A DNA stretch of 45,637 nucleotides, from the IMG/VR virus record IMGVR_UViG_2529292910_000009, positions 1 through 45,637 of that record. One strand, written 5' to 3'. Positions within the stretch are counted from its first letter, which is position 1. Each line of letters begins with the position of its first letter. The position numbers were made by a program. Source of the stretch: a virus (Duplodnaviria > Heunggongvirae > Uroviricota > Caudoviricetes). Shown here one piece after another: positions 33,001-36,000 of the stretch.

Positions 33001-36000
33001 CGCGCCTGATGATTCAGGCGGTTAATTTCCTCGCTGCGCTTACGGCCCTCAGCCAGTTGCCATTCCCGCCATTCGTCGGTCGTCCGGAACGGTGCTGCCA
33101 CGTGCGGTGGTGCCAGACGGCACACCCGTTCAAGAATCCCTCCAGTCGAAATGTTTTTCATGGCTGATTACCCCCTGAAACCCGGCGGAATTTCGGTGTC
33201 CGGTTCAGAAATGTGATTCACGCAACGCAGGCTGACTGCGCCAGCCTTCGGCAGCGACCACGGATTTTCGAAATTCCTGTTCGGGCCAAAAAACGTCGAT
33301 GCCTGCTGAACAAATTCAGTTCCCGCTTTCCCGGTAGCCTCCAGGTATCTTGCGTAACGCCTCACGCCATCCAGCACGACATCCGGTGACACCCCTTCGC
33401 GTAATCTGGCCCTCCAGGCATTGAACGCGGATTTCTTCGGGTTTGACCCTGCCCGATGCGGATATTCACGCCAGACCCGTTCGAACACGTCAGGATAATC
33501 AACTCGTCCCGCAGACGGTCCCGGCATCGCCCGGGTTAACCCAATCGGCTTCCCGCTCATCGCGGAATCGGCTTCAGGCTGCTGCGGTTGGCGTTGTTGC
33601 TCCGGTTCGACGATCAGCACCTGCTGCACACAACGCCCGGAATCTGCTTCCGGTGTCGTGCCAGCTGGTCCTGGAGGTTCAGTCAGAACAGGACAAAAAT
33701 CCCCCTGCGGGTCCGTGGCGATTTTTTCGCCATGGACCAGAAGGGTTTTATCCCTTTCCTGTTCTTGTTCCTGTTCCTGTTCTTGGCTTGAAAGGGGCTC
33801 TGAAGGGGCTTCAATTTTCCGACATGATTCACGTCTGACATCCAGGTGGAAATCATCCTTATATCTATCATAAAAGGATGATAAAAAAGGATTTTCCAGC
33901 AACGCGGAATATTCATTTCTTACCCCAGCACAACGGTTATCGCCAGGTTTCAGCGATTCACCAACCTGCCATGCTGCCATTTCATGCACCCATACAACCT
34001 CAGAATCATGGTCATAGCTGCAAAAACCAGCCTCGCAAGCCATTTGAAGCCCCTTAGAAGCCCCTTCAGGAGCAAGTCCGGTTTCGTGAGCAATGTACAA
34101 AACAGGCAGGTAATAAAGGCCCAGCATATTGGAATGAGGCGAGGTCATCATATACAACGCCACTACCATACATTCCGGACCAGACTTCCTTAGTTTTCGC
34201 CCTGTATCGCCTAACCAGAACTGAGGTGAAATTGTTGCGTAATTACGCATAGTCCCCTCGCATACAAGATTTACTCCATACCGCAGACGGTCCCGGTATC
34301 TCCCGGGTTAACCCAATCGGCTTCAGGCTGCTGCGGTTGGTGTGACTGCACATTGGTGTGACTGCACATCTTCACAGACGGTCCCGGTATCTCCGGGTTA
34401 ACCCAATCGGCTTCAGGCTGCTGCGGTTGGTGTTGTTGCTGGCGAAATTCTTCCAGATGTGGCAGAATTATTCCCGTGTATTGCTCCATGCCCTGCCTGA
34501 ATATCAGATATTCATCAGGATTTGCTCAGAACGTCCGGCCCCAACCGGACGTTTTTTATTTGCATGAACGTTAATGGCATGCTGGAAAGCCCGGCTGATC
34601 GGACTGATATCAGATGCCATCTGAAACGCGCATAAAATAGCCGCGATGTATCGCCAGTCGGTACGACTGACCTTCGATTCATGACAGCCAATCATCTTCG
34701 CCAGTCCCCTTTGCGTCAGAGCTGACAGGTTGATAAGTAAATCCGTTTCAGCGCGATCGATATCGCGCTGTGACAGTTTGCTGTAACTTGTTTGTTCCAT
34801 TTCTTAAGATTTCCAATAGTGAATAGCTAGTTGAAAGGTATGCGTGGAAACGCATATGGCCTTAGTTGGTCAGATATCTTGGGGCTCGCTTTGTCAGCGA
34901 CGTAGGACGAATGTCCATTGTGAAAATAGCGGTGTTACTTATGCAGCCAGAAGGTTCTTTTTGCTTATTTCAAGCATTTCGCTTGCTTGATATTTGCCAC
35001 CAGAAATCTCTTCGATTTTTGATGCGTATTTCGTTTTCCCAAAAAACTCAGTCTTAGGGAGGAAGCCGTTTTTGAGCCACTTATAGACAGCCCTTTCGCT
35101 AACTCCACAAGCCTTCGCAACTTCAGGGATGCCGACACCTTTAATCGGCTCATCAAGATTTTGCATAGGGATATCCTTTTTCGTACTTTCAGTACGCATT
35201 ATGATTGAACTGAAAGTTTTTGCAAGTGCTTTAGTATCGTACTCATGGTTCAGAATGAAAAAGTGCGCAAAGAATTCGCCCAGCGGCTAGCGCAAGCCTG
35301 TAAAGAAGCTGGTCTTGATGAACATGGTAGGGGAATGGCTATAGCCCGTGCCCTTTCTCTTTCGTCCAAAGGCGTTAGCAAATGGTTTAATGCTGAGTCT
35401 TTACCGCGTCAGGAAAAAATGAATGCGCTTGCGAAATTTCTAAACGTTGATGTTGTTTGGCTTCAGCACGGCACTTCGTTAAATGGAGCGAATGATGAAG
35501 ATACTCTTTCATTTGTTGGCAAATTAAAAAAAGGGTTAGTGCGCGTGGTTGGTGAGGCAATTCTTGGTGTTGATGGTGCCATCGAGATGACCGAAGAGCG
35601 CGATGGGTGGCTCAAAATTTATAGCGATGATCCAGATGCCTTTGGCCTTCGTGTGAAAGGAGACAGCATGTGGCCCAGAATAAAATCAGGAGAATATGTA
35701 CTCATTGAGCCTAACACCAAAGTATTCCCGGGTGATGAGGTGTTTGTCAGAACCGTTGAAGGACACAACATGATTAAGGTTCTTGGCTATGACAGAGATG
35801 GAGAATACCAATTTACAAGCATTAACCAGGATCACAGGCCTATAACGTTGCCTTATCATCAAGTAGCAAAGGTGGAGTATGTAGCTGGTATTCTGAAGCA
35901 ATCTCGCCATCTGGATGACATCGAGGCAAGGGAGTGGCTGAAAAGTTCGTGACTTCATCGTCACATAGCTGGTAACCAGTGGCCAGAAGAAACGTTTGGG

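Follow-up and report, generated by a model that had tools for sequence, protein, structure and literature searches.

The immunity region of a 45.6-kb Caudoviricetes phage probably carries the known right operator of Shiga-toxin phage 933W

Introduction

Where does the repressor bind between the divergent cro and cI genes of this phage, and has such an operator been described before? The question arose with the first-pass annotation of the window (the whole 45,637-nucleotide stretch of IMG/VR record IMGVR_UViG_2529292910_000009), which proposed three operator-like palindromes as oR1-3 in the 78-bp interval between the two genes, together with pR and pRM, and a further palindrome near nutL as a possible mark of oL. 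The finding is real but already known: nothing new emerges on oR architecture, and the locus is ordinary save for two point changes in oL. Correct operator coordinates matter for annotation and for modelling because the 933W switch controls the induction of Shiga-toxin prophages. In what follows, the sequence comparisons, the positions of the sites and the analyses of motif enrichment and of conservation were made here, while binding, affinities, activation and repression are taken from the literature.

A 933W-type immunity region

Between positions 34900 and 36000 (1101 bp) the window is 99.4% identical at the nucleotide level to phage 933W and to about 100 Stx-converting phages; 147 phage records match this segment. 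The region is taken with a probability of about 0.94 to be a 933W-type immunity switch, whose right operator has already been characterised in Shiga-toxin phage 933W. The two genes that bound the operator are:

34939-35166, minus strand: cro, 75 aa, 75/75 identical to 933W Cro, with helix-turn-helix (HTH) families in Pfam
35245-35952, plus strand: cI repressor, 235 aa, 235/235 identical to 933W CI

The divergent gap 35167-35244 lies between the start codons of cro (35166, minus strand) and cI (35245), and is exactly the interval singled out by the first-pass annotation. In Pfam, CI is made of an N-terminal DNA-binding domain (HTH_3) and a C-terminal autocleavage domain (Peptidase_S24), and a PDB sequence search with this protein found no solved relative. 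Residues S41, K42, K46 and E51 are all present in the window CI, and it is to these four that base recognition is assigned in published work on the 933W repressor (PMC3317979).

The window also keeps the 933W gene order (cro, oR, cI, L0084, L0083, stk, tM, oL/pL, nutL, N), as well as its set of five 15-bp sites with no OL3; CI, Cro, OR1, OR2, OR3 and OL1 are all identical in the two phages. The differences lie elsewhere, since the window carries a replication module of the POCJ13/PhiR5_2 type in place of the lambda O/P genes of 933W and, unlike 933W, has no stx operon downstream of Q.

The three sites of the right operator

Site positions were taken from two GenBank records, AF125520 for 933W ('operator oR1' and so on) and GQ499363 ('repressor binding site'), and mapped onto the window. 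The second of these is an independent record of a phage with 933W immunity. The match to the published sites thus combines GenBank annotations with rules given in text; the primary mapping of the 933W operators is reportedly the work of Tyler in 2004, Koudelka in 2004 and Bullwinkle in 2011, and the 933W operators and CI repressor are a system of the Koudelka and Friedman laboratories. The three sites are:

35182-35196, no strand: OR1, CGTACTTTCAGTACG, a perfect 15-bp palindrome, annotated in AF125520 and GQ499363
35206-35220, no strand: OR2, TGAACTGAAAGTTTT, annotated as oR2/OR2 in AF125520 and GQ499363
35238-35252, no strand: OR3, CGTACTCATGGTTCA, the true third site, centred on the cI ATG, annotated as oR3/OR3 in AF125520 and GQ499363

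In the alignment, the three 15-mers are base for base the same in the window and in 933W. The cro-cI interval holds just three differences between the two phages (35170, 35197 and 35204), all of them outside the OR 15-mers; phage PhiR12_1 has the same three, as do at least 11 E. coli genomes. The site centres at 35189, 35213 and 35245 give spacings of 24 bp from OR1 to OR2 and 32 bp from OR2 to OR3.

How well do these sites follow the rules laid down for the repressor? According to PMC3317979, there are five natural 933W sites of 15 bp, with rotational symmetry around an A-T pair at the centre. Little conservation is seen at position 1, and position 2 is G except in one OR2 half-site. At position 3 the consensus is A, but OR1 has T at both 3 and 3′; A and C never vary at positions 4 and 5, respectively, and position 6 has T in 7/10 half-sites and C in the other 3 (PMC3317979). 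The five mapped 933W sites obey every one of these rules, down to the exact half-site counts, and the G at position 2 is indeed missing from one half-site of OR2. Nine of the ten half-sites in the window conform as well, the exception being the left half of OL2, which has A at position 6.

The core drawn from the literature, GWAC-N5-GTWC, is enriched in the window, with 7 occurrences against 1.65 expected and none of 100 shuffles reaching 7. Four of the seven are OR1, OR3, OL2 and OL1, and OR2 matches with one mismatch; the other exact matches (2730, 22227 and 37659) lie in coding regions and are as many as chance predicts. A degenerate weighted consensus gives 4 sites scoring at least 10.5 against 0.18 expected, three of which are OR1, OR3 and OL1.

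The palindromes themselves are where the first-pass annotation put them: CGTACTTTCAGTACG at 35182-35196, AACTGAAAGTT at 35208-35218, AGTATCGTACT at 35233-35243 and GAACTATTGGTTC at 38312-38324. When 933W oR and oL are aligned with the window, the first, second and fourth fall within the annotated OR1, OR2 and OL1. Palindromes of 11 bp under-describe the operators, which span 15 bp and have GWAC as their half-site core. Symmetry is of unequal weight as evidence: in 45.6 kb there are 18 perfect 6-3-6 palindromes, which gives an expectation of about 0.03 per 78 bp, whereas the window holds 189 palindromes of the 4-3-4 kind (4.1 per kb, or about 0.3 per 78 bp). At this chance frequency, the second and third palindromes are therefore unremarkable as such. 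The second is supported because it has a 9-mer, ACTTTCAGT, in common with the first, in inverted orientation.

Could OR1 be an incidental palindrome, or a hairpin in RNA or DNA such as a terminator-like stem-loop? A terminator scan does flag CGTACTTTCAGTACG followed by CATTATGATT, but the stem has only 6 pairs, 3 of them G-C, and its tail has no T-run. Divergent start codons also flank it on either side, a protein is known to bind the identical sequence, and the motif is met again at oL and in diverged phages, with variation that follows half-sites and not stems. The terminator call was accordingly rejected as a scanner artefact, and an origin of these palindromes in chance or in hairpins is, of all the explanations weighed in this article, the one given least credit.

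The position of the third site

The proposed layout as a whole was borne out, since this phage of 933W type does have a tripartite oR, together with pR and pRM, in its divergent cro-cI gap. Its first site is OR1 and its second the core of OR2, but the third is not OR3 and was placed 7 bp off. The even spacing of 23-26 bp does not hold for the operators either: the palindrome centres (35189, 35213 and 35238) are indeed 24 and 25 bp apart, while the annotated operators are 24 and 32 bp apart.

Reading the operator as three even, lambda-like sites 24-25 bp apart, with AGTATCGTACT as OR3, is tempting. The palindrome is real, the resulting spacing resembles that of lambda, and AP004402, whose annotation is purely predicted, has a 17-bp 'putative operator' at 35230-35246 with the same central base. 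It nevertheless misplaces OR3, which two GenBank records put at 35238-35252. The halves of AGTATCGTACT (AGTA..TACT) are in the reverse arrangement to the core of OR1 (TACT..AGTA); the 15-mer centred on it at 35238 lacks both the invariant A4 and the invariant C5, and palindromes of this kind are common (4.1 per kb). The sequence is made up of AGTAT, which belongs to the putative pRM -10 (TAGTAT), and CGTACT, the left half-site of OR3; CGTACT is its only overlap with OR3, which ends 8 bp past the end of the interval proposed in the first-pass annotation (35244). The palindrome is moreover lost in the Salmonella phages SI5 (ACTATCGAACT) and MS2 LVA (ATAATTGAACT), while the register 35238-35252 is kept in SI5, MS2 LVA and HK022. 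As an operator, AGTATCGTACT was thus rejected, its symmetry being at chance level and without support of the 9-mer type, and the even-spaced register is considered highly improbable.

A second competing description comes from the annotation of Stx2 converting phage I (AP004402), with six lambda-like 17-bp operators. In window coordinates, these are:

35199-35215, 35230-35246 and 35265-35281: three putative operators of AP004402
36668-36748: three more, in the gene upstream of stk

AP004402, which in its immunity region is identical to 933W, does contain these six features, and Stx2I is treated elsewhere as having six 17-bp operators (PMC10742460). However, the six sequences have no common motif and are labelled 'putative', and three of them lie in a coding region far from pL. 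The set also disagrees with the description of five 15-bp sites that came from in vitro selection and footprinting, as well as with the conservation of the motif seen here. This alternative deserves even less credence than the even-spaced register, and the five 15-bp sites of 933W are retained below.

Promoters of the right operator

pR is the sole sigma-70-like match that a promoter scan finds in the interval, and the pattern ATTATG is kept in all relatives. The two promoters are:

35198-35225, minus strand: pR, -35 TTGCAA (35225-35220), 16-nt spacer, -10 CATAAT (35203-35198); putative pR in AF125520
35210-35237, plus strand: putative pRM, weak -35 CTGAAA (35210-35215), -10 TAGTAT (35232-35237); 'pM; putative' in AF125520

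OR1, one base downstream of the pR -10, covers the predicted pR start. OR2 fills the pR spacer, covers the putative pRM -35 and is conserved in SI5 and HK022. The pRM -10 follows a TAnnAT pattern, read as TAGTAT here, TACTAT in SI5 and TATAAT in MS2 LVA.

With these presumed hexamers, pRM would start at or next to the cI ATG, and the sequence thus predicts a leaderless cI mRNA. Such a start would put OR3 at about +1 and the centre of OR2 near -32. In lambda, OR2 lies at an estimated -42 or so relative to the pRM start. The geometry of OR2 here is thus odd for an activator, one helical turn nearer than in that lambda estimate. An alternative pRM -35, the self-complementary TTGCAA read on the plus strand (35220-35225), would give OR2 a lambda-like geometry. 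It was rejected because transcription from it would begin past the cI ATG, and because TAnnAT at 35232-35237 is conserved.

The left operator

The possible oL palindrome of the first-pass annotation (38312-38324, centre 38318) turned out to be the core of OL1; the neighbouring OL2 had been missed. The elements of this region are:

38287-38301, no strand: OL2, CGTACAAATAGTTCT, 'OL2 repressor binding site' in GQ499363 (there about 38288-38303), exact core-motif match
38311-38325, no strand: OL1, CGAACTATTGGTTCA, 'OL1 repressor binding site' in GQ499363 (there about 38310-38325), exact motif match
38301-38329, plus strand: putative pL, -35 TTAATA (933W TTGATA), 17-nt spacer, -10 CATTAT, presumably driving N
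38347-38413, plus strand: nutL, transferred from 'nutL; putative' in AF125520 (locus 6948-7014)
38579-38962, plus strand: N antiterminator gene, Pfam N_peptide, annotated N in 933W, first gene of the pL operon

OL1, with GAACTATTGGTTC as its core, is identical to that of 933W and overlaps the spacer and -10 of pL, while OL2 abuts the pL -35. No OL3 was found: between stk and N, only 38288 and 38312 match the core, even when one mismatch is allowed, and GQ499363 annotates only OL1 and OL2 in oL. The arrangement TTGATA-17-CATTAT is picked out by the promoter scanner in 933W, the window copy scoring below its threshold, and the TTG of this -35 is conserved in SI5 and MS2 LVA. By analogy with the CATAAT that lies between OR2 and OR1, GATAAT in the OL2-OL1 spacer was also considered as the pL -10. 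It was rejected because it has no usable -35 and because its A2 is lost in SI5 (GCATAT), where the TTG of TTGATA is kept.

A model of the switch, and comparison with lambda

As in the lambda paradigm, cI and cro diverge around a three-site operator overlapping pR and pRM; the autocleaving repressor with its HTH and S24 domains and the oL/pL/nutL/N arrangement are also alike. By the 933W model, CI would recognise 15-bp two-fold symmetric sites with the half-site C-G-(A/T)-A-C-(T/C), three in oR and two in oL. Bound to OR1, on the predicted pR start, and to OR2, in the pR spacer, it would shut off pR, which is expected to drive cro, cII and the replication genes. At oL, repressor on OL1 and OL2 would cover the core promoter of pL and silence it too. 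In the 933W literature, pRM is stimulated by repressor on OR2 and repressed by repressor on OR3, over the cI start. By analogy, Cro may act on the same sites as CI.

Published work on 933W reports CI binding for sequences identical to OR1-3 and OL1 (PMC3317979, PMC5977221), and a repressor that acts through three OR and two OL sites, with no OL3, and represses pR and pL (PMC3317979, PMC5977221, PMC4848623). OR1, the site with T at 3 and 3′ (PMC3317979), is described there as the 933W repressor site of highest affinity. In the same texts, binding of 933W repressor to adjacent sites is not cooperative, and a long-range OL-OR loop plays no role in the control of pRM (PMC3317979, PMC5977221). Relative dissociation constants for OR1, OR2 and OR3 are given as about 1 : 10 : 15 for separate sites and about 1 : 13.6 : 26.4 in the intact OR, so that occupancy follows intrinsic affinity, and OR3 is described as occupied in part when repressor is at the level that fills OR2, in lysogens as well (PMC5977221, PMC4848623). 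Because OR3 is partly occupied, 933W lysogens contain few repressor molecules (about 34 per cell) and are easily induced.

It is on these points that 933W departs from lambda in the literature: pairwise cooperativity, OL3 and a role of the loop in pRM control are all missing, and OR2 and OR3 have similar affinities. The sites themselves are 15 bp long as against 17 bp in lambda, with oR spacings of 24 and 32 bp; neither three oL sites nor evenly spaced 17-bp operators were found in the window.

Conservation in relatives

GenBank and IMG/VR supplied 42 E. coli-type copies of the cro-cI interval, and these vary only outside the operator sequence visible in that comparison, namely OR1, OR2 and the left half of OR3. 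In Salmonella phage SI5, whose CI is 88% identical, the core motif has 4 matches in 8.1 kb (0.23 expected), which are OR1, OR3 and, at a distance of 24 bp from each other, two sites in oL. In the repressor of Salmonella phage MS2 LVA, a DNA-binding domain resembling that of 933W is joined to a C-terminal domain that is unrelated; the OR sites of this phage are kept, with the A/T toggling at position 3 being a tolerated change. The OR3 register is found as CGAACTCATGGTTCA in SI5, TGAACTCATGGTACA in MS2 LVA and TGAACTTATGGTTCA in HK022.

In HK022 the repressor is only 36% identical and the individual site sequences differ. The N-terminal domain of this repressor is homologous and retains K42 and K46 in its recognition helix, and the core GWAC-N5-GTWC is the same as in the window. 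The HK022 oR is collinear with that of the window, with 24 bp from OR1 to OR2, 33 bp from OR2 to OR3 and OR3 across the cI ATG; its pR -10 ATTATG is conserved, and oL is likewise made of two sites 24 bp apart. The half-site core and the collinear oR with OR3 on the cI ATG, which mark an HK022-type family, are therefore both present. HK022 has one extra exact core match just past cro (L052 5448-5460), to which none corresponds in the window.

Changes private to this copy

Over the 4063 bp that run from cro to N, 27 positions distinguish the window from 933W, and at 24 of them the window allele also occurs in other fetched loci. The three private changes, absent from the compared loci, are:

38292: C to A at OL2 position 6; 933W and 41/41 covering loci have C
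38303: G to A, turning the putative pL -35 TTGATA into TTAATA; 49/49 covering loci carry the 933W allele
near 37019: 1-bp deletion in stk (GAAAAC to GAAAC), a frameshift that splits the kinase gene; 24/25 covering loci carry the 933W allele, and the remaining one differs elsewhere

A comparison of window positions 38240-38360 with 44 phage records and 187 complete E. coli genomes found nothing with fewer than two mismatches. An exact search of IMG/VR for the oL variant gave no matches, nor did a degenerate pattern find it among the GTDB species representatives. An N-tolerant pattern returned 41 IMG/VR contigs, and every matching locus has the 933W alleles.

The substitution at 38292 converts the 933W OL2, CGTACCAATAGTTCT, into CGTACAAATAGTTCT, which thereby departs from 933W at a specificity-determining position. 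In PMC3317979, C is preferred at position 6, where a contact with E51 is modelled, and A-T or G-C binds 'much more poorly'; OL2 is there the second-strongest natural 933W site (PMC3317979).

It is conceivable, albeit rather unlikely, that this copy of the 933W switch is a natural left-operator variant, defined by OL2 position 6, the pL -35 and the stk frameshift. The OL2 and pL changes could then be a selected pair, in which a weaker pL offsets a weaker OL2, or they could amount to a pL-down mutation that quiets the early-left genes in the prophage; either, if true, would shift the induction threshold. Alternatively, the private changes may reflect neutral drift or decay, or sequencing error. 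Two of the three lie 11 bp apart in one regulatory element, a post hoc observation that is suggestive. With its OL2/pL double substitution, this stx-negative mosaic phage lends itself to an inexpensive natural test of the specificity rule for position 6, and of the extent to which the control of pL depends on OL2; the OL2/pL variant is the sole item here worth a bench test.

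Left operator and promoter

At position 38292 of the window, the sixth base of the CI repressor site OL2 is changed from C to A, while all 41 compared loci covering it carry the allele of the Shiga-toxin phage 933W; according to PMC3317979, C is favoured and A disfavoured here. At 38303, a G to A change turns the putative −35 of pL from TTGATA into TTAATA, the 933W allele being present in 49 of the 49 compared loci that cover it. Comparison with 44 phage records and with 187 E. coli genomes gave at least two mismatches to this left operator in every case.

Right operator and pRM

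In the stretch 35206-35245, OR2 covers the putative pRM −35, and its centre would lie near −32 with the putative pRM start placed on the cI ATG, which would make the mRNA leaderless. The lambda OR2 is centred at roughly −42. The pR −35 at 35220-35225, TTGCAA, reads the same on both strands.

The DNA of this immunity region has been annotated in more than one way. Stx2 converting phage I (AP004402) is the same as 933W across the region, without any difference, and its record nevertheless lists six mutually unrelated 17-bp “putative operators,” three of which fall within a gene. These GenBank features map to the following window positions:

35199-35215, AP004402 “putative operators”
35230-35246, same annotation
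35265-35281, same annotation
36668-36748, same annotation, the three that fall within a gene

The two records give conflicting descriptions of one and the same DNA. In PMC10742460, “Stx2I” was taken as a phage with six operators of 17 bp, and 933W was left out because of its five sites.

Operator sites in relatives and elsewhere in the window

Salmonella phage MS2 LVA keeps 933W-type operators despite the unrelated C-terminal domain of its repressor (L006, the MS2 LVA locus, 3965-4753), in which that domain is joined to a 933W-like DNA-binding domain with the recognition helix SSKAVSKWF. Its oL (6249-6316) appears to include a third site, GAACCAATAGTTC, lying further upstream at 6249; Salmonella phage SI5 has the near-site CGTACTAAAAGGACA at the equivalent position, whereas 933W and the window retain only a degenerate remnant. 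Phage HK022 carries GTACTTTTAGTAC, which matches the operator core exactly, directly downstream of cro (HK022 locus L052, 5448-5460), and the window has no counterpart of it in the cro-cII interval. Further exact core matches in the window all lie within coding regions, their number (n = 3) being in line with chance expectation:

2730-2742, core match
22226-22240, core match GGAACCGCTGGTACG, scoring equal to OL1 but with a G-C centre
37659-37671, core match

Neighbouring genes

36877-37922, stk, serine/threonine kinase gene, with a 1-bp deletion near 37019-37021
24056-24649, DUF1737 gene
25371-25904, minus strand, Q antiterminator gene

In 933W, stk is a single 348-aa ORF, whereas in the window it is split by the 1-bp deletion (GAAAAC to GAAAC), and is either a pseudogene or the product of a sequencing error. 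The A4 run is intact in 24 of 25 other loci covering the site; in the remaining one, the difference sits in the adjacent A-run. Downstream of Q, only ~720 bp separate the Q and DUF1737 genes, no tRNA genes are found within 24056-25904, and space for stxAB is absent; the phage is stx-negative with 933W immunity.

Replication module

32421-34500, replication module (initiator-like protein and DnaC/IstB-like loader)
33509-33594 and 34281-34433, direct repeats of 41-49 nt
34337-34368, tandem pair of 16 nt

The 933W module is of the lambda O/P type, unlike that of the window, whose 360-aa initiator-like protein gave no Pfam match. The window module is 97.6-98.7% identical to those of PhiR5_2, phiSTEC1589-Stx1c, Shigella POCJ13, and 75/02 Stx, and its repeats might be origin or iteron elements.
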